A stretch of DNA of 37,459 bases from Nitriliruptorales bacterium (GCA_007133145.1 SLNF01000317.1:1-37459), one strand, 5' to 3'; shown: positions 1,585-14,348, counted from the stretch's first letter. The notes: generated by a model not told the origin, from the letters alone. Numbers and translations: made by a program.

Positions 1585-2709
1585 ATGCACGACGACACGA
1601 CCCTCACGCCCCTGCCCGACGGTCCGAGCGTCGCCGTAGCCGACTGCGACGCCGCAGCGGTCGCCGGCGCGAGCGCCTTCCGGACCCCGCAAGGCCGTTG
1701 GCTGCTGCCGGCGTTCCGCGGCTACGCCGTCGACGTCGGCGAGGGGCCCCTGCCCGCCGATGACGACGAGGACGCCGTCGCCGAGCTCGCGCTGTCCTGG
1801 GTCGAGACCGTGCGCGCCCGCGACTGGACCGACCTGCGGGGCGCCGAGCTCGACAGCGAGGACTGGATGGACCTGCGCACCGCGATGGTGCGCGTCGGGT
1901 GGGGCCCTGCTGCCGCACACGCCGCCTGGCGCACCTGCCGGGACCGCCCCTACGCACGCGACCTACCGACGGCGGCGGGCTGGGCGGGCGCCGGCTGGGT
2001 CCTGCCGGCCGTGCCCGACGAGCCCGAACCGGCGTTCGCGAGGCCGCTCCTCGAGGCCCGGGGGCTGCTGCGGTGGGCCTACATCACCCGCTGGCGCGAC
2101 CCCGTCGGCCTGCCCGAGGGCGAGCCCCCGGTCGAACCCGATCCCACCGCCCCCGACTGGGCCGACGTGCTCGCGCGGCTGAGGGCCGACCACTACACCG
2201 CCGAGGCCCTCGAGGAGGCCGAAGCGCTCGCCGTCGAGGTCCTCACCACCGTCGGGCTCGGGCCGGCCAGCGCCCTCGAGGCCGAGGACGAGCCGCTGCC
2301 CGACCGCCACGTCGCCGCAGCGGTTGGCCACGCCAGCGAGGTCGTCCGCGCTGCCGCCTGGTTCCTGCTGCACGCCGAGAGCGACACGTGGCTCGCCTGT
2401 GCCTACGGCGAGTGCCAACACCACTGGGCGGTCGAGGCAGAGGAGGACGCCTTCGAGCAGGAGGAGGTCCTCGAGCTCGCCGGGCGCGGGGTGAGCAACC
2501 CCGTCGACGCCGCCTACCAGCGACGCCGGCTGCTCACGATGGCCTTCGGCGACATCAACGACGTGCCGCTGGCCGGCGCGGGGGACCTCGACGACTTCCT
2601 CGCCTTCTACGAGGGCTGGGTCGCCGCGGGCCGCCCCGAGGAGGACTTCGCCGATGCCGCCCGTGAGCTCCGCGGCGACGACGAGCCCGGGGAGGACTAC
2701 CGGGGCTGA
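1585..2709 (+). CDS. Hypothetical protein, acidic and Trp-rich, no recognisable domain
   Basis: Lies within ORF 1546..2709. ATG at 1585 has GGAG at 1575-1578. Coding-like codon bias over 375 codons. I recognise no motifs. Confidence 0.6.
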   Translation: MHDDTTLTPLPDGPSVAVADCDAAAVAGASAFRTPQGRWLLPAFRGYAVDVGEGPLPADDDEDAVAELALSWVETVRARDWTDLRGAELDSEDWMDLRTAMVRVGWGPAAAHAAWRTCRDRPYARDLPTAAGWAGAGWVLPAVPDEPEPAFARPLLEARGLLRWAYITRWRDPVGLPEGEPPVEPDPTAPDWADVLARLRADHYTAEALEEAEALAVEVLTTVGLGPASALEAEDEPLPDRHVAAAVGHASEVVRAAAWFLLHAESDTWLACAYGECQHHWAVEAEEDAFEQEEVLELAGRGVSNPVDAAYQRRRLLTMAFGDINDVPLAGAGDLDDFLAFYEGWVAAGRPEEDFADAARELRGDDEPGEDYRG

Positions 2710-3359
2710 CCCCCGGCGCCCGCGCCGGGCCCGCCGGCGAGCGGTTGCCCGGCGAGCGCGGCGACCTCGGCGCGCAGCTCGGCGGTGAAGCGCCTGCGGT
2801 CCCGCGGGTCGTCGCGTGGTGGCGGGTGCGGAGCGCCGAAGCGCACCGCGACGAGGCCGGGCGCGGGTCGCCGCCAGCGGGGCCCACCCTCGCGGGGCCA
2901 GACCGTCTCGCAGCCACGCAGGCCCACGGGCACGACCGGGGCGGCGGCACGGGCGGCGATGCGGGCCATCCCTGAGCGGAAGCGGCCGAGCTCGCCGGTC
3001 GTCGAGCGGGTGCCCTCGGGGAAGAGCGCGACGATCCGCCCGCGCGCGAGGAGGCAGACGAGGGTGTCGAGCGCCTCGGCGTCGGCGCTGCCGCGGGCGA
3101 CGGGGACCATCCCGAGGGAGGTGATCGCCCTGCCCCACGGCCCCCGGGCGAGCTCGCGCTTGCCGAGGAAGTGCACCGGCCGCGGGGAGGCTGCAGCGAG
3201 GAGGAAGTTGTCGAGGTTCGTGCCGTGATTGGAGACGAGCACCGCCGCCCCGTGCGACGGCACGGCCTCGGCCCCGTCGATCTCGACGTGCAGGCGTCGC
3301 AGGAGCAAGGGGGCGGTGAGGCGGTGCGCCAGGCGCATGCCTGGCGGTTCGCTGCTCAT
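2697..3359 (-). CDS. 1-acyl-sn-glycerol-3-phosphate (lysophospholipid) acyltransferase family protein
   Basis: ORF 2697..3359. Carries the acyltransferase motif I NHGTNLD (NHxxxxD) and motif III FPEGTR. Confidence 0.85.
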   Translation of the reverse strand: MSSEPPGMRLAHRLTAPLLLRRLHVEIDGAEAVPSHGAAVLVSNHGTNLDNFLLAAASPRPVHFLGKRELARGPWGRAITSLGMVPVARGSADAEALDTLVCLLARGRIVALFPEGTRSTTGELGRFRSGMARIAARAAAPVVPVGLRGCETVWPREGGPRWRRPAPGLVAVRFGAPHPPPRDDPRDRRRFTAELRAEVAALAGQPLAGGPGAGAGGQPR

Positions 3360-4135: not shown

Positions 4136-5040
4136 GCCAGTGCCTCCTCGAGCTCGGCGGGCGTGGTGATCGCCCGGCGACCCAGGCCACGGTCGGTGCG
4201 CTTGACGAGGCCGGTGACCACGGGTGAGGCGCCGAGCTCGACGACGTCGGTGATGCCGGCGGCGACGAAGGTGCCGACGGTCTCGCGCCAGCGCACCGGT
4301 GAGACCACCTGGCGACGCAGGAGCGACGGCCAGTCCCCGGCGGCGGTGTGCGCGACCGCGTCGACGTTGGCGACGACCGGTGTCATCGTGTCGGCGAACG
4401 CCGTGGCGTCGAGCGCCGGGCCGAGCTCCTCGACTGCGGGGGCCATGTGGGGACTGTGGTAGGCGGCGCCGACCTCGAGGGCTACGACCTTGCCGCGGCC
4501 CTCCTGCCGGTCGAGGGCCGCGCGCAACGCCTCGAGCGATGCTGGCGCGCCGGCGCACACGACCTGGCCGGGGGCGTTGTCGTTGGCCACGTGGGCGCCG
4601 GTCTCGGCGCACGCGGCCTCGACGACCTCCCGGTCGTAGCCGAGGCAGGCGACCATCCCTCCAGGATGGGCGTGGGCGGCTTGCTCGGTTGCCCGCGCCC
4701 GGACGTCGACGAGGGCGAGCGCGGAGGCGAAGTCGAGCGCGCCTGCGGCGACGAGGGCGTCGTACTCCCCGAGGGAGTGGCCCGCCGTCGCGGTCGGGGC
4801 CGTGCCGCCTGCGGCCTGCCAGGCCTCGAGCAGCACCACCGCGTGCACGAAGAGCGCGACCTGGCAGGCCGCGGGTTCGCGGAGCTCCTCGGCGGTGGCG
4901 CTCGTCCCGAGCCGTTGCACGTCGAAGCCGAGCAGGTCACCGGCCTCCTCCCAGCGCGCGAAGGATGGATGGTCCTGCCATGCCAGGGCCATCCCCTCGC
5001 GTTGGCTGCCCTGGCCGGCGAAGACCAGCGCGGTCGTCAT
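4132..5040 (-). CDS. fabD: Malonyl-CoA:ACP transacylase
   Basis: ORF 4132..5040. Shows FAGQGSQ, the GHSLGE nucleophile elbow and the AYHSPHM region. Confidence 0.9.
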   Translation of the reverse strand: MTTALVFAGQGSQREGMALAWQDHPSFARWEEAGDLLGFDVQRLGTSATAEELREPAACQVALFVHAVVLLEAWQAAGGTAPTATAGHSLGEYDALVAAGALDFASALALVDVRARATEQAAHAHPGGMVACLGYDREVVEAACAETGAHVANDNAPGQVVCAGAPASLEALRAALDRQEGRGKVVALEVGAAYHSPHMAPAVEELGPALDATAFADTMTPVVANVDAVAHTAAGDWPSLLRRQVVSPVRWRETVGTFVAAGITDVVELGASPVVTGLVKRTDRGLGRRAITTPAELEEALA

Positions 5041-5494
5041 GGGCTCGCTCCTCCTGCCTCGCGGGTGCGCGGGAACGCGGGCAGCGAGAGCCTAGCGAAG
5101 GGCGTCACCTCGGGCGTGACCGGTGCCGGCGATCAGGCATCAGAACCTGTGGAGGACCGCCGACTGAGGTCGGAGGGGCCTGGCATCATGCGGGCATCTC
5201 GAACGCACGTTCTCTCGCAGGGCAGGACGCGCCCGGGCGCGTCACCGGCACCGACCACACCGGCGGCCACGCCGCGGGGGATGGCGCCGGCGGTGCGGCG
5301 GGCGATGCCCCTGGCAGCCATGAGTCCGATGCTGGGGTGGGTTCGGCGGGTGCGGCCGCCGGCGGTGCGGGTGCTGCTGACCGACGGCGCCCGAGCGCTC
5401 GCGCTGACCCCGCCGCTGGCACGGCTGGCAGCTGTGGCTGCACCCCGAGAGCGGCCAGGTCACCCTCGCACGTCACGACCGGCAATGGCGCACC

Positions 5495-5539
5495 CTGCCC
5501 CAGGGCACCGGCCTGCCCCAGGGCACCGGCCTGCCCCAG
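5495..5539. repeat. 18-bp tandem repeat, about 2.5 copies (ctgccccagggcaccggc)
   Basis: Two perfect units at 5495-5512 and 5513-5530, plus a partial third unit at 5531-5539. Lies in the 540-bp spacer between fabD and the ABC transporter. Confidence 0.9.
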
Positions 5540-5590
5540 CGCCACTGGAACGGGGGCCGCGTTGACGGCGGCCTCCTATCCTTGCCGGTG

Positions 5591-6520
5591 ATGTCCCCCG
5601 CGATCACGGTCACCGACCTCGTCAAGACCTATGGCGAGCACCGCGCCGTCGACGGCCTGTCGTTCACCGTCGAGCCCGGCGAGATCCTCGCGCTGCTCGG
5701 CCCCAATGGCGCGGGCAAGACGAGCACTGCCGAGTGCATCGCGGGCCTACGCCACCCCGACGCTGGCCACGTCGAGGTGCTCGGCGTCGATCCGCGGGCC
5801 GAGCGTGAGCGCGTGGCCGGTCGCCTCGGGGTCATGCTCCAGGACGGCGGGGTGCACCGCAGCGCGACCCCAGCGGAGCTCATCGGCACCTTCGCGGCCT
5901 ACTACGACGACCCGCTCGACCCTGTGGCCATCATCGCCGAGCTCGGGCTCGACGGGGTCGCCCGGCGGCGCGTGCGTACGCTCTCGGGTGGTGAGGCCCA
6001 ACGCGTGTCGCTGGCGCTCGCGCTCGTGGGGCGACCGCGCGTCGCGCTGCTCGACGAGCCCACCGTCGGCATGGATCCCGCGACGCGGCGCGCGACGTGG
6101 CAGCGCCTCGACGCGCTCCGCGAGGACGGCGTCGCGGTGCTGCTCACAACCCACCTCATGGAGGAGGCCGAGCAACTCGCCGACCGCGTCGCCGTCATCG
6201 ACCGTGGTGGGCTCGTCGCCCTCGACGCCCCGGATGTGCTCACCGCACCGGATCGTGGCCTGCACGTCGAGACACCCGGGCCGTTCGAGCCGGAGCGGCT
6301 CGCGGCCGCGCTCTCCTGCGAGGTCACCCACCTCGAAGGGCAGCGCTGGCACGTCGACCTCCCCGCCGAGCGGCTCTCGGCGGTGGCGGTCTGGTTCGCG
6401 AGTCAGGGCGTCGCGCTCTCGGGGGTGACCGTCGCACGCCAGCGACTCGAGGACGTCTACCTGCGGCTCACCGACAACGACGAGCCCGCCAGCGCCCATG
6501 ACGAGGACGCCGAGCGGTGA
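5591..6520 (+). CDS. ABC transporter ATP-binding protein (DrrA/ABC-2 type)
   Basis: Lies within ORF 5582..6520. Carries Walker A GPNGAGKT, signature LSGGEAQR and Walker B LLDEPT. The start is ambiguous (TTG 5582, GTG 5588, ATG 5591). The stop overlaps the permease start (GTGA at 6517-6520). Confidence 0.88.
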   Translation: MSPAITVTDLVKTYGEHRAVDGLSFTVEPGEILALLGPNGAGKTSTAECIAGLRHPDAGHVEVLGVDPRAERERVAGRLGVMLQDGGVHRSATPAELIGTFAAYYDDPLDPVAIIAELGLDGVARRRVRTLSGGEAQRVSLALALVGRPRVALLDEPTVGMDPATRRATWQRLDALREDGVAVLLTTHLMEEAEQLADRVAVIDRGGLVALDAPDVLTAPDRGLHVETPGPFEPERLAAALSCEVTHLEGQRWHVDLPAERLSAVAVWFASQGVALSGVTVARQRLEDVYLRLTDNDEPASAHDEDAER

Positions 6521-7275
6521 GCGTTCGCCGCCTTCGGGCCCAGGTGCGGCTCGAGCTGACGCTGTTGGCCCGCAACGGGGAGAACCTCCTCATCAGCCTC
6601 GGCATCCCCGTCGGCATGCTCCTGTTCCTCCACGTCGTCCCGGTGCTGCCGGACGGCTCGAGCGCACCCCTCGACGCGCTCGCTCCAGGGGCGCTGACCG
6701 TCGCGCTCATGGGCTCGGGCATGGTCGCGCTCGGCATCTCGACGGCGTTCGAGCGTGAGTACAGCGTGCTGCGGCGCTACGGGGTCACGCCGCTGCGGCG
6801 CGGCGAGCTCGTCGCGGCGAAGGCGACCGCGGTGCTCGCCGTCCAGGCCGTGCAGGTCCTCGTCATCGGTGGTGTCGCCGTGGCGCTCGGATGGCGCCCC
6901 TCCCCCACCGCTGCGGGCCTCGCGGCCGCCGTCGCCGGGCTCGTGCTCGCCAGCGCGGCCTTCGCCGGGATCGGTCTCGCGCTCGCCGGGCGCCTGCCCG
7001 CCCTCCGGGCGCTCGCTGCCCTCAACGCGCTCTTCGTGCTCCTGCTCTTCCTCGGCGGTGTCGCCGTGCCGCTCGCGGTCCTCCCTGGCGCGCTCGCGGC
7101 GATCGGCGGGCTCACCCCGACGGCCTGGACCGTCGCAGTGCTCGTCGGCGCCCTCGACGCCGGCGCGGTGGACGACGGCGGCGCGCTGCCCGGGGTGGCC
7201 ACGGCGCTTGCGGTGCTGGTCCTGTGGGCCGCCGGGGCGCTCGCCGTCGCCTCGCGCCTCTTCCGGTGGTCGTGA
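6517..7275 (+). CDS. ABC-2 type transporter permease
   Basis: ORF 6517..7275. Multi-span hydrophobic protein translationally coupled to the ATPase. Confidence 0.85.
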   Translation: MSVRRLRAQVRLELTLLARNGENLLISLGIPVGMLLFLHVVPVLPDGSSAPLDALAPGALTVALMGSGMVALGISTAFEREYSVLRRYGVTPLRRGELVAAKATAVLAVQAVQVLVIGGVAVALGWRPSPTAAGLAAAVAGLVLASAAFAGIGLALAGRLPALRALAALNALFVLLLFLGGVAVPLAVLPGALAAIGGLTPTAWTVAVLVGALDAGAVDDGGALPGVATALAVLVLWAAGALAVASRLFRWS

Positions 7276-7491
7276 GCCACATCGCGACGCGGGCCGCGAG
7301 TGACCCCTGGGTCGCCTCGGCCGGGACCATCGGCCCTCCCCGCCTCCGGTGCGCGAGGCAAGGCTCGGCGGCCCCGCCACGAAGGCGCTCCCTGCGCGAA
7401 GGACGCCGTCCGCATGTGCGACACGACGCCGATCCCTACCCGCCTGGCTCCGCCGGGTCGGGCGGCCTCGCGATGAGCGAGGGCTGAGGCC

Positions 7492-7995
7492 GTGCCACGC
7501 CACGTGCACTACTACGAGCTCGTCGACGTCGCCTATCCCGACGCCGCCGCGACGCTGGCGTCGGATCCGTCGACATGGCTGCCGCAGCCGGCGAGCCCGG
7601 CCGACGGCGGCTGGGAGGTCGACTTGCGCGCCAACGGCGCGCTCCCGGGCGCGCTCGCGACGCGGCGAGCGATCGTGCGGGTCGGGCCGGTGCCCGACCG
7701 TCCGGTCGTCGGGGACGCCGGGGCCGCGGCCCCCGACGCCACGATCGGCCTGCTGCGGCCACTGCGCTGGGAGGCCGCGACCGCCGAGGACCTCTTCCCG
7801 GTGCTCTCCGCCGACCTCGAGCTCGTGCCGTTGCAGGGTGAGGGCTGCCAGCTCACGCTCATGGGGTCCTACCGTCCCCCGCTCTCGGCGGTTGGCGACG
7901 CGACCGACCGGCTCCTGGGCCACCGCGTCGCCGAGGCCACGGTGCGCCGCTTCGTGCTCGACGTCGCCGCCCGACTCGGTCCGGCGAGGGACTGA
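7492..7995 (+). CDS. Hypothetical protein (possibly an SRPBCC-like fold); paralogous to the N-terminal domain of the 10547..11674 product
   Basis: ORF 7492..7995 with a GTG start. Its C-terminal half aligns with residues of the 10547 product: PLRWEA..FP....LELVP......QLTLMGSY.PP......D.LL.HRVAEA versus PLAWEA..FP....IELEP......QLTLTGSY.VP......D.GALRRVAEA. Confidence 0.6.
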   Translation: MPRHVHYYELVDVAYPDAAATLASDPSTWLPQPASPADGGWEVDLRANGALPGALATRRAIVRVGPVPDRPVVGDAGAAAPDATIGLLRPLRWEAATAEDLFPVLSADLELVPLQGEGCQLTLMGSYRPPLSAVGDATDRLLGHRVAEATVRRFVLDVAARLGPARD

Positions 7996-8052
7996 GGACC
8001 CGCGCGTTCGCCGTTCGCCCCTGGCAGGTTGGGCCGTTAGGCTCTTGCCCTC

Positions 8053-9213
8053 ATGAACGAGCGAACGGAGACGGCACCCGAGCGTCTCGACGCCCTCGCC
8101 GACGCCGCCGCGGCGCTCGCGGGCGAGCTCAGCGTCGAGAGCGTGCTCGAGACGGTGCTGTCGCATGCTCGGGGGCTGACCGGCGCGCGCTACGCCGCCC
8201 TCGGGGTGCTCGGCGAGGACGGGCTCATCGAGCGCTTCCTCACCGAGGGGCTGCCCGAGGAGCACGTCGCGCGGATCGGGCCACCACCGACCGGCAAGGG
8301 CGTGCTTGGTGAGCTCATCCACGACCCGCGGCCCTTGCGGCTCGACGACGTCAGCGCCCATCCCGCGGCGGCGGGCTTCCCCCCGGAGCACCCACCGATG
8401 GCCAGCTTCCTCGGGGCGCCGATCCGCTCCGGCGGCACGGTCTACGGCAACCTCTACCTCACCGACAAGGCCGGTGGCTTCGACGTCGATGACGAGCGCA
8501 CGGTGCTCGTGCTCGCCGCCCAGGCCGGTGCCGCCGTGGAGAACGCGGTGCTGTCGCAGCGGCTGCGCGAACTCGCCGTTCAAGACGAGCGCGACCGCAT
8601 CTCCCGGGAGCTCCACGACGGCGTGATCCAGACGCTCTTCAGCCTCGGCATGGGCCTCGACGCAGCCCGTGAGCTCATCACCGTCGACCCGGCGCGGGCC
8701 GACGCGCGCATCGACGAGGCGGTCGAGGCGATCGACGGGGCGATCCGCGAGCTGCGCAACTTCATCTTCCAGCTGCGGCCCGAGCATGCGGCGTCGATGG
8801 GCTTCGCGCGCGGCCTCACCGAGCTCGCGCGCGAGTACGAGGTCAACGCGCTCGTCCGCCCGCGACTCGAGATCCCCACCGACGTCGACGCCCGGTTGCC
8901 CGCACAGCTCGTGCCCGACCTCCTTGCGATCGTGCGCGAGTCGCTGTCGAACGTCGCCAAGCACGCCCGCGCCTCGGAGGTGACGATCCACGTCGGCCTC
9001 GCCGAGGGCGTCGAGCTCTGCGTGGCCGACGACGGTGTGGGCCTGTCAGGGGATACCCTGCAGGCAGGACGTGGGCTCGAGAACATCCGCGAGCGGGCCC
9101 GCGCCCTCGGTGCCGACCTCGACCTGCGCAGCGCGCCGGGCGAGGGCACCGAGGTCCGCCTGGCGATACCGCGCCATCGCGCCGGGTCTGAGGACGAAGA
9201 GGAGCAGGTGTGA
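8053..9213 (+). CDS. Cytoplasmic GAF-domain sensor histidine kinase (HisKA_3 / NarL class)
   Basis: ORF 8053..9213. N-terminal GAF-like region, H-box ERDRISRELHDGVIQ and an HATPase_c region with N and G boxes (SNVAKHA, DDGVG, GRGLENIRERA). No transmembrane segment is evident. Confidence 0.88.
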   Translation: MNERTETAPERLDALADAAAALAGELSVESVLETVLSHARGLTGARYAALGVLGEDGLIERFLTEGLPEEHVARIGPPPTGKGVLGELIHDPRPLRLDDVSAHPAAAGFPPEHPPMASFLGAPIRSGGTVYGNLYLTDKAGGFDVDDERTVLVLAAQAGAAVENAVLSQRLRELAVQDERDRISRELHDGVIQTLFSLGMGLDAARELITVDPARADARIDEAVEAIDGAIRELRNFIFQLRPEHAASMGFARGLTELAREYEVNALVRPRLEIPTDVDARLPAQLVPDLLAIVRESLSNVAKHARASEVTIHVGLAEGVELCVADDGVGLSGDTLQAGRGLENIRERARALGADLDLRSAPGEGTEVRLAIPRHRAGSEDEEEQV

Positions 9214-9860
9214 TCAAGGTGATGCTCGTCGACGACCACGAGGTGGTCCGTCAGGGCCTGCGGTCGATGCTCGACGCCCAGGAGGACCTCGAGGTCGTCG
9301 CCGAGGCCGGCACGGCCGGTGAGGCCGTCCTGCGTGCGCGGTCCTACAAGCCCGACGTCGTCGTGCTCGACGTACGCCTCCCCGACCGTTCCGGGGTGCT
9401 CGCCTGCCGTGACATCCGCGCCGAGCACCCCGACATGGCCGTGCTCATGCTCACGTCGTTCTCCGACGACCAGGCGCTGTTCGACTCGATCATGGCCGGC
9501 GCCGCCGGCTACGTGCTCAAGCAGATCCGCGGCTCCGAGCTCGTCGACGGGGTCCGGCGGGTCGGCAACGGCGAGTCGTTGCTCGACCCCGCGGTGACCG
9601 CCCGGGTGCTCGAGCGCGTGCGCAACCCCAAGGGGGACGAGGACCCGCGTCTGGCCCGCCTGACGCCCACCGAGGCCCGCATCCTCGAGATGATCGCCGA
9701 GGGGCGGACCAACCGCGAGATCGGCGAGCGCATCCATCTCGCGGAGAAGACCGTGAAGAACTACGTCTCGACGATCCTCACCAAGCTCCAGGTCTCGCGC
9801 CGCGCGGAGGCCGCCGCCTACCTCGCCGAGCGCCGCAACCGCCACGACAACGACGGCTGA
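9210..9860 (+). CDS. NarL/LuxR-family response regulator
   Basis: ORF 9210..9860. The GTG start overlaps the kinase stop (GTGA). Receiver domain shows MLVDDHEVV...VVVLDVRLPD. C-terminal LuxR HTH shows LTPTEARILEMIAEGRTNREIGERIHLAEKTVKNYVSTIL. Confidence 0.9.
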   Translation: MIKVMLVDDHEVVRQGLRSMLDAQEDLEVVAEAGTAGEAVLRARSYKPDVVVLDVRLPDRSGVLACRDIRAEHPDMAVLMLTSFSDDQALFDSIMAGAAGYVLKQIRGSELVDGVRRVGNGESLLDPAVTARVLERVRNPKGDEDPRLARLTPTEARILEMIAEGRTNREIGERIHLAEKTVKNYVSTILTKLQVSRRAEAAAYLAERRNRHDNDG

Positions 9861-9864
9861 GTGG

Positions 9865-10296
9865 CTACGGGGGTGACTCGGCCGCCTCGGGGGACAGCGA
9901 CGCGAGGAGGCAATCGGTCGTCGTGATGACCCCGAGCATGACGCGCTCCTCGTCGACGACCGGCAGGGCGCTCACGCGTCGCGACAGCATTTGGCGGGCT
10001 GCGGCCTCGACGGGCTCGTCGGCGCCGACGGTATGCACCGGCGAGCTCATGACCGCCTCGACGATCTGGCCCTCACCGGTGGCCTCGCCGACGCGCCCCA
10101 TCGCGGCGAGACGGTGGACCTCCCCATCGTCGATCCTCACGTCGCGGTCGGAGACCATCCCGACGACATGGCCCTCGTCGTCGACGACAGGGAGGTGGCG
10201 CACGCCGTAGTAGCGCATGAGCCGCCGGGCCTCGCCGAGCTCGGTCTGCGGCGTCACCGTCACCGGGTCGGGGCTCATCCAGTTGCGGACCAACAT
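9865..10296 (-). CDS. CBS-pair domain protein (Hrp1-like stand-alone CBS protein)
   Basis: ORF 9865..10296 contains two CBS motifs. A strong RBS AGGAGGAGG lies upstream of the ATG at 10296. Confidence 0.85.
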   Translation of the reverse strand: MLVRNWMSPDPVTVTPQTELGEARRLMRYYGVRHLPVVDDEGHVVGMVSDRDVRIDDGEVHRLAAMGRVGEATGEGQIVEAVMSSPVHTVGADEPVEAAARQMLSRRVSALPVVDEERVMLGVITTTDCLLASLSPEAAESPP

Positions 10297-10546
10297 CGCG
10301 CCTCCTCCTGCCGATCCTGTGCGGGACGCTGCGGGTGCGCTTCACCCGGTCGCATCATCCCCGATCCCGCGGGGAGGGAAGCAGGACGAACGACCCCCGG
10401 CGCAAAGGACCAGGCGGGCCGCGCCACACCGCCGCACGGCCCTTCATCCCCGGCGGCCTGCGGGCAAGGTTGCAGGGGCCAGCGGCGACTCGTCCGACGG
10501 CGGGCGGCGCTGCGCGGGAGGGGGCACGGCAGGAGGGAGCGCAACC

Positions 10547-11674
10547 GTGGAGCGGTGGCTGTACGCCTACCGGCAGGTCGCCGGCGACGTCACCGTGCTC
10601 GACGAGCGCCTGCGTGAGGGCCTGCGCGACATGCTCAGCGAGCCGGACGACACCCCAGAGGTCGACGGCTCCTTCCGTACGAGGCTGCGCGGTGAGATCG
10701 CCGGCATCGACACCGAGAAGCTCGTGCGCGTCCGGGTCGGGGTCGCGGGTCGCCGCGGCTCTCGGCTGCGCATCCCCCTGGCCTGGGAGGCCGAGTCGGG
10801 CCGACGGGTGTTCCCGCGCTTCGACGGCACGATCGAGCTCGAGCCGATGAGCGCGGCTCGCGCACAGCTCACCCTCACCGGCAGCTACGAGGTGCCCTTC
10901 GGCCCCCTCGGCGCCCTCGCCGACGCCGGCGCGCTGCGGCGCGTCGCCGAGGCTTCCGCCGAAGAGCTCGTCGAACGCATCGCGACGGGCCTGGGACGCG
11001 ACCCCTCCAGGCCGCCGACCGCGGACCGCTACCCGCGCCTGACCGTGGCCGACGTCATGACCCCCGATCCCGTCGTGCTCGACGAGGAGCTGCCGCTGCG
11101 CACCGCCGCGCTGCTGCTGTTCCATCACCGCATCGGTGGCGCGCCGGTCCTCGCCGACGACGGCTCGCTCATCGGCGTGCTGAGCGAAGCCGACCTCCTC
11201 GACAAGGAGGCCGCCCCGGCTCGCGGTGGGCGCGAGGCTGCGGTGCACGAGTTGCGCGCCGCTGCGCGCACCGTCGGCGAGGCGTGCAGCCGCCCTGCAC
11301 GAGTCACCGTGCCTGACGCCGCGCTGCGCAAGGCCGCCCGTGAGATGCTCGACGCGCGCGTGGCGCGCCTCGTCGTCGTCGACGACACGCGCGTGGTTGG
11401 TATCGTCAGCCGGCACGATGTGCTGCGGGCCCTCGTGCGGACCGACGCCTCCATCGCCGACGCCGTCAGAGCCGTCCTCGTGCGGCTCGACGAGCACGAC
11501 ATCGCCGTCGAAGTCGACTGGGGCGTCGTCACGCTCAGCGGCTCGGTCACGTCGCGGAGCCGCCTCAGCGTCGTGGAGCGGGCCGTCCGGGAGGTCGATG
11601 GTGTCATGGACCTCCAGAGTTCCGTAGGATGGCTCGTCGACGACACCTTGCCGGCGAGCCCGCCGCTGGCCTGA
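10547..11674 (+). CDS. Three-part fusion protein: uncharacterised N-terminal domain (paralog of 7492..7995) + CBS pair + BON domain
   Basis: Lies within ORF 10217..11674. GTG at 10547 is preceded by AGGAGGGAG at 10531-10539. CBS pair shows VADVMTPDPVVL...GVLSEADLL and ...VVVDDTRVVGIVSRHDVLRAL. The C-terminal end is BON-like (IAVEVDWGVVTLSGSVTSRSRLSVVERAVREVDGVMDL). Confidence 0.8.
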   Translation: MERWLYAYRQVAGDVTVLDERLREGLRDMLSEPDDTPEVDGSFRTRLRGEIAGIDTEKLVRVRVGVAGRRGSRLRIPLAWEAESGRRVFPRFDGTIELEPMSAARAQLTLTGSYEVPFGPLGALADAGALRRVAEASAEELVERIATGLGRDPSRPPTADRYPRLTVADVMTPDPVVLDEELPLRTAALLLFHHRIGGAPVLADDGSLIGVLSEADLLDKEAAPARGGREAAVHELRAAARTVGEACSRPARVTVPDAALRKAAREMLDARVARLVVVDDTRVVGIVSRHDVLRALVRTDASIADAVRAVLVRLDEHDIAVEVDWGVVTLSGSVTSRSRLSVVERAVREVDGVMDLQSSVGWLVDDTLPASPPLA

Positions 11675-11711
11675 ACGTCTTGCTGTGTGCCGACCCAGGA
11701 GAGGAACACCT

Positions 11712-14348
<2,637 letters not shown>

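Follow-up and report, generated by a model that had tools for sequence, protein, structure and literature searches.

A DNA stretch of 37,459 nucleotides from a Nitriliruptorales bacterium (GCA_007133145.1 SLNF01000317.1:1-37459; the whole stretch is referred to here as the window) carries a two-component system of the DevS/DosT-DevR (DosR) type, bracketed by two copies of a so far unannotated domain. One copy is a free-standing protein, termed X, encoded directly upstream of the kinase, and the other is the N-terminal part of a CBS-BON protein encoded downstream of the regulator. Systems of the DosR/DevR type govern dormancy under hypoxia in mycobacteria and related stress responses in Streptomyces. 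The genes for X and the fused protein are best explained as predicted DevR-regulon outputs in a DosR-like system, with X as leader cistron, a reading to which we give a probability of about 55%; the comparative evidence points first to co-regulation.

The nearest genome matches to the locus are two Egibacter/Egibacteraceae metagenome-assembled genomes (MAGs) of the class Nitriliruptoria (90% identity; L009 and L010, related loci being given L numbers throughout), and the system is that of an Egibacter-like member of this class. Related sequences come almost entirely from MAGs and metagenome contigs, and some loci share one MAG. The features on which the argument turns are as follows.

7323-7336, no strand: DevR/OsdR-type palindromic box GGGACCATCGGCCC, 156 bp upstream of the start codon at 7492
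7492-7995, plus strand: X, free-standing protein of predicted SRPBCC fold, 167 amino acids, GTG start; predicted leader cistron of an X-kinase-regulator operon
8053-9213, plus strand: predicted DevS/DosT-like haem sensor histidine kinase, GAF-HisKA_3-HATPase_c, 386 amino acids (Pfam; DevS GAF-A match)
9210-9860, plus strand: DevR/DosR-like NarL-family response regulator, Response_reg and GerE (match to DevR, 3C3W)
10383-10396, no strand: degenerate DevR-like box AGGACGAACGACCC, conserved in position, in the divergent intergenic region between a CBS-pair gene and the fused gene
10547-11674, plus strand: fused SRPBCC-CBS-CBS-BON protein, 375 amino acids, GTG start, inside a longer mechanical open reading frame (ORF) at 10217-11674
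10547-10996, plus strand: N-terminal SRPBCC-fold domain of the fused protein, residues 1-150 (homology to X and AlphaFold 2 model)
11039-11434, plus strand: CBS pair of the fused protein, residues ~165-296 (Pfam CBS, E=2.4e-23)
11441-11674, plus strand: BON domain of the fused protein, residues ~299-364, with the C-terminal tail (Pfam BON, E=3.4e-8, above the cut-off)

The start of the regulator gene overlaps the stop of the kinase gene by 4 nt, and the start at 10547 given for the fused gene agrees with the length of homologues of its product, 376-379 amino acids. Base composition of the region is high-GC (72-76%), and the long ORFs listed mechanically on the opposite strand are artefacts of the kind usual in such DNA. 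Promoter, terminator and Rfam scans returned nothing in the region or the window.

Boxes upstream of the SRPBCC genes

The OsdR box consensus of Streptomyces coelicolor, AGGGCCGATCGGCCCT, conforms to the mycobacterial DevR box, and OsdR binds at the promoter of the gene for pyruvate phosphate dikinase (PPDK) (PMC5069765). The pattern taken from this consensus, GGGMC-N4-GKCCC, has a sole perfect match in the 37.5-kb window, at 7323-7336 (with its flanks CGGGACCATCGGCCCT, 7322-7337), and this match lies in the 216-bp intergenic region preceding X. About one match is expected in 37 kb, and the chance of its landing in the gap before X is therefore below 1%. Conservation of the box extends to L009, L010 and L029, and equivalent boxes stand upstream of homologues in other loci, including the unlinked paralogues of L015, L016, L018 and L019 and the distant relatives of L007 and L026-L028.

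The positional enrichment of these boxes is strong across 20 non-redundant loci (~244 kb), in which genes were placed by tblastn landmarks. Of 21 perfect boxes, five lie no more than 200 bp upstream of an X-family or fused gene (0.43 expected, P=6e-5); of 137 boxes with at most one mismatch, 21 do so (2.8 expected, P=1e-12). When database gene calls are used and only genes with an upstream intergenic region of their own are counted, a box precedes 8 of 10 X or fused genes as against 13 of 57 others (Fisher P=9e-4), and several of those 13 are an operon leader preceding X, a divergent CBS gene, or DevR/DevS-like genes. The box at 10383-10396, upstream of the fused gene, departs from the pattern at two positions; it aligns within a conserved block with GGGGCAATCGTCCC of L001 and GTGCCGAACGTCCC of L018, which match the pattern better, and a perfect or one-mismatch box precedes the fused gene in L001, L013, L018 and L021.

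The strict mycobacterial form of the box, GGGAC-N4-GTCCC, was also tried and is not enriched in the window (2 against 5.3 expected at one mismatch), the box being informative only with OsdR-type degeneracy and position-aware comparative counts. A near-box at 7988-8001 (GGGACTGAGGACCC) differs from the strict DosR palindrome at one position and overlaps the X stop codon, 52 bp ahead of the start of the kinase gene; it lacks conservation in L009 and L010, which are 90% identical, and is probably due to chance.

DevR/OsdR-like boxes often occur in tandem, with starts exactly 23 bp apart (L013, 10266/10289; L017, 7402/7425; L018, 1143/1166; L019, 7822/7845; L022, 1846/1869; L033, 3114/3137 and 6730/6753). 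Such pairs resemble the cooperative tandem DevR sites of mycobacterial promoters.

Conservation of gene order

It is clear that the association of X with the kinase/regulator pair, as the original prediction (an earlier reading of the window made from its sequence alone) had it, is real and conserved. Among 20 independent close-family loci of the Nitriliruptoria (at least 47% identity to X), 15 have X directly upstream of the GAF-HisKA_3 kinase and the regulator while the flanks vary. The order is seen in the window group (L009, L010, L029), L001/L011, L002, L004, L013, L014, L017, L021, L030, L031, L032, L033, L035 and L036, and in divergent orientation in L022. Gaps between X and kinase are short, with a 4-nt stop/start overlap in L002, L014 and L021. 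Five close-family paralogues lack an adjacent kinase (L012, L015, L016, L018, L019). The bracketing of the signalling system by the two paralogues, on which the same prediction had remarked, recurs in L001/L011, L009, L010, L013 and L029.

The co-occurrence extends to distant relatives in other arrangements: in L006 X is flanked by a DevR-like regulator and a kinase with two GAF domains and HisKA_3, and in L027 it stands beside a regulator, a Pyridox_ox_2 gene and a two-GAF kinase. In four distant loci (L007, L026, L027 and L028, at ~5000-8500 in each) X is convergent with a STAS-PAS gene, the 3' end of which it sometimes overlaps. The next gene encodes Cytochrom_B_N_2 in L007, L026 and L028 and a glycosyl hydrolase in L027; near-perfect DevR-type boxes precede both the SRPBCC genes and the cytochrome-b-like genes of this STAS-PAS-associated subfamily.

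Three further genes flank the system in the window.

5582-7275, plus strand: ABC ATPase and permease, upstream of X
9865-10296, minus strand: stand-alone CBS-pair protein, 143 amino acids, divergent from the fused gene (two CBS domains, E=1.2e-32)
11685-14348, plus strand: PPDK, a conserved neighbour

The 143-amino-acid CBS-pair gene is kept at its position in L001, L002, L009, L010 and L018 and serves as operon leader in L014, L031, L033 and L035, the gene preceding X being variously Pyridox_ox_2, a CBS pair, or a cupredoxin/multicopper oxidase. PPDK is syntenic in L001, L009-L011, L013 and L018. The S. coelicolor orthologue of PPDK, SCO0208, is an experimentally bound OsdR target (PMC5069765), which, together with its conservation as a neighbour here, suggests an ancient regulon link.

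Several individual loci add detail. L033 has a third, more divergent SRPBCC paralogue (2608-3018, minus strand; 37% identity), transcribed divergently from the CBS-X-kinase-regulator operon, and tandem boxes occupy their common intergenic region. The unlinked paralogue of L019 (6338-10843) sits between a flavin amine-oxidase/protoporphyrinogen-oxidase-like gene and a gene for CtaA (haem A synthase), neighbours that hint at a haem or respiratory connection. In L004 (4534-5862) and L017 (7480-8000) a multicopper oxidase/cupredoxin gene is placed between the DevR-type box or boxes and the SRPBCC-kinase-regulator genes; it is possibly copper nitrite reductase-like, which would tie the operon to nitrogen-oxide metabolism.

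Identity of the kinase and regulator

Domain assignments made earlier for the kinase (GAF, HisKA_3, HATPase_c), the regulator (Response_reg, GerE) and the fused protein (two CBS, BON) agree with Pfam, and sequence comparison further identifies the pair as a DevS/DosT-DevR (DosR) homologue. The regulator matches Mycobacterium tuberculosis DevR (3C3W) over its full length (residues 1-216, E=5.2e-60), with an identical recognition helix (LAEKTVKNYVS) and a conserved phospho-acceptor motif (LDVRLPD). In the kinase, HisKA_3 (PF07730, E=5.7e-19) and HATPase_c (PF02518, E=3.8e-11) form the core, the ATPase domain matching the DosT and DevS kinase cores, and for the GAF domain the match is to crystallised constructs of DevS GAF-A (E=1.4e-39).

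Gly51 of the kinase stands at the position of DevS Glu87, where the best Protein Data Bank match (2y8h) also has Gly and the next match (2y79) has Ala; Gly at this position is DosT-like and linked to O2 access to the haem. Counted along the alignment, His113 and Tyr135 of the kinase correspond to DevS His149 and Tyr171, of which the former is the proximal haem ligand and the latter the distal residue (PMC4082495). The domain is thus predicted to be a haem-type GAF-A for the sensing of O2, nitric oxide (NO), CO or redox state. It is the single GAF of the protein (residues 26-163) and is followed directly by HisKA_3; as GAF-B is absent, the kinase is DevS-like and not a strict orthologue. The homology of the pair to DevS/DosT-DevR explains the neighbouring CBS-pair and PPDK genes as a probable dormancy-regulon island.

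Homology and fold of the two domain copies

The original prediction rested on a shared motif series in X and the fused protein, and a proper alignment bears it out. The two share 33% identity over 133 aligned positions (BLASTP, single comparison, E=2e-12), and a profile-profile comparison of 15 free-standing with 33 fused homologues gives a probability of 99.3% (E=3.5e-20, 155 columns), spanning all 167 residues of X and residues 1-157 of the fused protein. All of the listed motifs are collinear: PLRWEA in X and PLAWEA in the fused protein, FP in both, LELVP and IELEP, QLTLMGSYRPP and QLTLTGSYEVP, D..L..RVAEA in both, and VAARLG and IATGLG.

As had been stated, the domain is uncharacterised, neither window copy having a match in Pfam or NCBIfam (E<=1). 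Protein Data Bank sequence searches with either copy or a 38-sequence profile gave nothing meaningful (the best profile match was Ku, E=0.76). The earlier guess that the domain is SRPBCC/START-like is right at the level of fold, since all significant Foldseek matches of X belong to this class, and at the level of sequence for its relatives, 13 of 38 aligned ones matching PF10604 Polyketide_cyc2 (best E=2.1e-7). AlphaFold 2 models X with high confidence (mean predicted local distance difference test, pLDDT, 88.8; predicted template-modelling score, pTM, 0.86) as beta1-alpha1-beta2..beta7 followed by a 27-residue C-terminal helix, that is, a helix-grip fold. All 34 Foldseek matches in the Protein Data Bank at E<=1e-3 are of the SRPBCC/Bet v 1 fold, with probability 1.0 and template-modelling (TM) scores of 0.4-0.58; the best is a CoxG-family protein, and the matches include CoxG-like APE2225 (2ns9), PR-10, norcoclaurine synthase, ZhuI, PYL receptors and a START domain. 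The model of the fused protein (pLDDT 88.5) shows the same beta-alpha-beta6-helix topology at residues 3-150. Both copies are thus modelled as having the SRPBCC (Bet v 1/START/polyketide-cyclase-like) fold, of which they represent a divergent branch that has had no annotation until now.

With this superfamily the domain shares a predicted long C-terminal helix on a seven-stranded antiparallel sheet; it differs in that one N-terminal helix is clearly predicted in X instead of the usual two, in the missing Pfam and NCBIfam matches of the window copies, and in a signature of its own branch, W..(L)FP..D(L/I)EL...GSY.PP.G..G..D...RVAE. SRPBCC domains are cytoplasmic and typically enclose a hydrophobic small molecule, and a ligand cavity in X and in the fused copy is assumed from the modelled fold. 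Conservation in the X family is focused on beta5-beta7, the PP-loop after them and the C-terminal helix, with W93, P103, L121, Y127, P130, G135, D139 and A147 invariant. An Ala/Gly/Pro-rich insertion between two strands (7690-7745, X residues ~66-84) is found only in the window group and L001 and is modelled with low confidence (pLDDT ~64).

The family is large. A word-index search returned 788 homologues of X, and an exhaustive profile search found 3559 representative clusters (defined at 50% identity) at E<=1e-3, or 2125 at E<=1e-10. Members are almost all single-domain proteins of 150-190 amino acids, 'hypothetical' where named, apart from one cluster member labelled 'carbon monoxide dehydrogenase subunit G' by a source. 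No extra Pfam domains were found in those of 220-330 amino acids, and tblastn found no homologue on plasmids.

The fused protein

Past residue 150 the model of the fused protein consists of a disordered linker, the CBS pair and a BON part with a beta-beta-alpha-beta unit at residues 319-364. In Foldseek searches with this model the CBS pair dominates and little is added on the N-terminal domain. The CBS pair matches that of M. tuberculosis hypoxic response protein 1 (Hrp1, Rv2626c) in structure and sequence (E~5e-7), and shorter CBS-CBS-BON forms of 217-240 amino acids occur in other Actinomycetota; the fused protein differs from both in its additional N-terminal SRPBCC domain. A word-index search with the N-terminal domain alone gave one weak match and missed orthologues, and the full-length protein was used as query instead. 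More than 100 near-full-length relatives were found (40-65% identity, 376-392 amino acids), the named ones all from Egibacteraceae, Euzebyales or unclassified Actinomycetota; among the sequences seen, the SRPBCC-CBS-CBS-BON architecture is confined to Nitriliruptoria. In L001, L004, L009-L011, L013, L021 and L029 the fused gene is a few kb or less away from the system, and in L018 it adjoins PPDK. In a neighbour-joining tree (a simple distance tree) the N-terminal domains of the fused proteins form one separate clade, and the fusion therefore arose once. The description of this protein as a CBS-BON protein with the domain as its input module is borne out as regards the fusion, and the input role finds no support.

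Regulon output or kinase partner

The mechanism that best accounts for these observations would have the regulator bind the boxes and induce X and the fused genes under hypoxia or NO. X would be the first cistron of an autoregulated SRPBCC-devS-devR operon and, as it stands behind a DevR/OsdR-type palindrome, would be induced together with the system; the fused gene, the small CBS-pair gene and probably the PPDK gene would form one predicted regulon island. As outputs of the hypoxia/NO response the SRPBCC proteins may bind a hydrophobic metabolite. In the fused protein the CBS pair would sense adenine nucleotides, the BON domain would putatively associate with the membrane, and ligand binding would be coupled to both. 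That the ligand is a lipid, a quinone or a tetrapyrrole-like compound is a speculative suggestion, made because of the fold, the haem or respiratory neighbours in some loci and the reported link between DosS signalling and the menaquinone pool (PMC4082495). It is from motif position that we infer regulation by the DevR-like regulator; ligand binding, and any feedback of X on the kinase, are inferred as well.

The original prediction had instead made the domain a ligand- or partner-binding module associated with the kinase/regulator pair. Nothing shows such an input or partner role, and the boxes precede linked, unlinked and fused copies alike. In the tree described above, the linked and unlinked paralogues found in one MAG group as sisters; the unlinked copies are therefore recent duplicates in which the box has been retained, a pattern more in keeping with a regulon effector than with a dedicated partner. 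The broader claim of a functionally linked, poorly described module stands in so far as the linkage is conserved; the pair itself is of the known DevS/DosT-DevR type, which had not been recognised.

Nevertheless, a dedicated partner or co-sensor, the main rival reading, has a tentative case, which we consider unlikely without being negligible, at about one chance in four. X might gate the single-GAF DevS-like kinase in response to a second hydrophobic signal (menaquinone/menaquinol or a lipid), and might functionally replace the missing GAF-B. PYR/PYL abscisic-acid receptors are START-fold proteins that gate PP2C phosphatases, so that SRPBCC ligand-gated regulators of signalling enzymes are known, and PYL is among the Foldseek matches. 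The likeness of X to PYR/PYL/RCAR receptors is one of fold class; sequence similarity is absent, and the partner of X would be a histidine kinase and not PP2C, which makes them a conceptual precedent only. The gene order at 15 of the 20 close-family loci, where short gaps or overlaps of 4 nt between X and kinase are a sign of translational coupling, speaks for a partner, as do the recurrence of DevS-like kinases beside X in the differently arranged L006 and L027, the lack of GAF-B in the kinases here, and the link of mycobacterial DosS signalling to the menaquinone pool (PMC4082495). Against it, the paralogues that have no kinase beside them arose recently by duplication of linked ones and retain the upstream box, and the one known fusion partner of the domain in the sequences examined is CBS-BON, never a kinase. 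The kinases of L006 and L027, moreover, carry two GAF domains with X still nearby, so X is not simply a substitute for GAF-B. The fuller version, in which X is a ligand-gated partner supplying a second hydrophobic input to a DosR-type switch while the fused paralogue couples the ligand to energy charge at the membrane, is somewhat more doubtful again.

Other functions for the domain are far less probable. SRPBCC and CBS proteins both have precedents in ribosome silencing, in RatA/PasT and in CBS-domain ribosome dormancy factors respectively, and the dormancy-regulon context, an HSP20 neighbour in L004 and a weak Foldseek match (rank 31) of the fused model to Dri, a CBS-domain inhibitor of the archaeal 70S ribosome, could be taken to indicate that the domain, alone or with the CBS pair, acts in translation or ribosome silencing or as a general stress chaperone during dormancy. 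We think this improbable: the Dri match runs through the generic CBS pair only, RatA/Coq10-type structures are absent from the top 50 fold matches of X, and the conserved neighbourhood holds no ribosomal or translation genes. Least probable of all is that X is an unrelated SRPBCC enzyme or subunit, of polyketide cyclase/aromatase or CoxG type, that neighbours the two-component system by chance. The best fold match is indeed to the CoxG family, the ZhuI aromatase/cyclase is also matched, relatives match Polyketide_cyc2, and one cluster member bears the name of a carbon monoxide dehydrogenase subunit; yet no polyketide synthase (PKS) or coxMSL genes were found in the window or any related locus examined. 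A type II PKS cluster (ketosynthase, chain-length factor, acyl carrier protein) is absent from the window and the annotated related loci, which by way of relevant neighbours offer only FabD-like and short-chain dehydrogenase genes on the opposite strand, and no cox genes occur in any locus examined. Conservation of the DevS/DevR-like linkage and of DevR-type boxes while the flanks change argues against chance adjacency.

Several observations weigh against regarding the SRPBCC genes as regulon outputs. The tight, often translationally coupled order of X and kinase (75% of close-family loci) is also expected of a stoichiometric partner, and no DevS/DevR genes lie near family members L008, L023, L025 and L037. 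The fused gene of the window has only a two-mismatch box, and over the window as a whole GGGMC-N4-GKCCC is not over-represented, with 1 perfect match where 1.05 would be expected and 15 one-mismatch matches where the expectation is 26. The pattern is short and GC-rich, and its statistics depend on how zones are defined. The TM-scores of the Foldseek matches, at 0.4-0.58, are only moderate.

Relation to known DosR-type systems and significance

Parallels with the DevS/DosT-DevR and OsdR systems are extensive. They comprise the predicted haem-type GAF-A with proximal His and distal Tyr and the HisKA_3 core of the kinase, the DevR-like regulator with its identical recognition helix, the GGGMC-N4-GKCCC box upstream of the operon, and the CBS-pair and PPDK genes as neighbours or targets. 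A small accessory gene also accompanies the system in each case, Rv3134c in M. tuberculosis, the product of which is a universal stress protein, and X here, by predicted co-transcription. Rv3134c is co-transcribed with devR-devS and is described only as a conserved protein of unknown function in PMC4082495, whereas the accessory here is of predicted SRPBCC fold. The present system differs further in the single GAF of its kinase, which lacks GAF-B, and in its gene order of accessory, kinase and regulator.

In the literature searched, no SRPBCC member of the DosR/OsdR regulon was found, one key comparative study lying outside that coverage, and the terms 'polyketide cyclase' and 'DosR regulon' together returned only work on the ArsR-like regulator Rv2034. 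Nor did that literature describe an SRPBCC protein co-transcribed with a DevS-like kinase as its accessory, an SRPBCC family associated with DevR boxes in several actinobacterial lineages, or the SRPBCC-CBS-CBS-BON architecture. Both the fold and the type of signalling system are already well known, the SRPBCC accessory is modestly new, and the advance is incremental unless X proves to be a partner of the kinase.

It is an unsettled question how the haem kinases take account of signals other than O2, NO and CO, for instance the state of the electron-transport chain. A family of ~3,500 clusters that is found repeatedly before DevS-like kinases and behind DevR-type boxes in environmental Actinomycetota is a specific candidate for the part of conserved effector or co-sensor in the DosR-type circuit, and it offers an annotation handle for proteins now listed as 'hypothetical' or 'CBS domain-containing'. 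Should X be a partner of the kinase after all, the DosR-type dormancy switch would respond to a hydrophobic signal as its second input, such as a membrane lipid or the redox state of the menaquinone pool.

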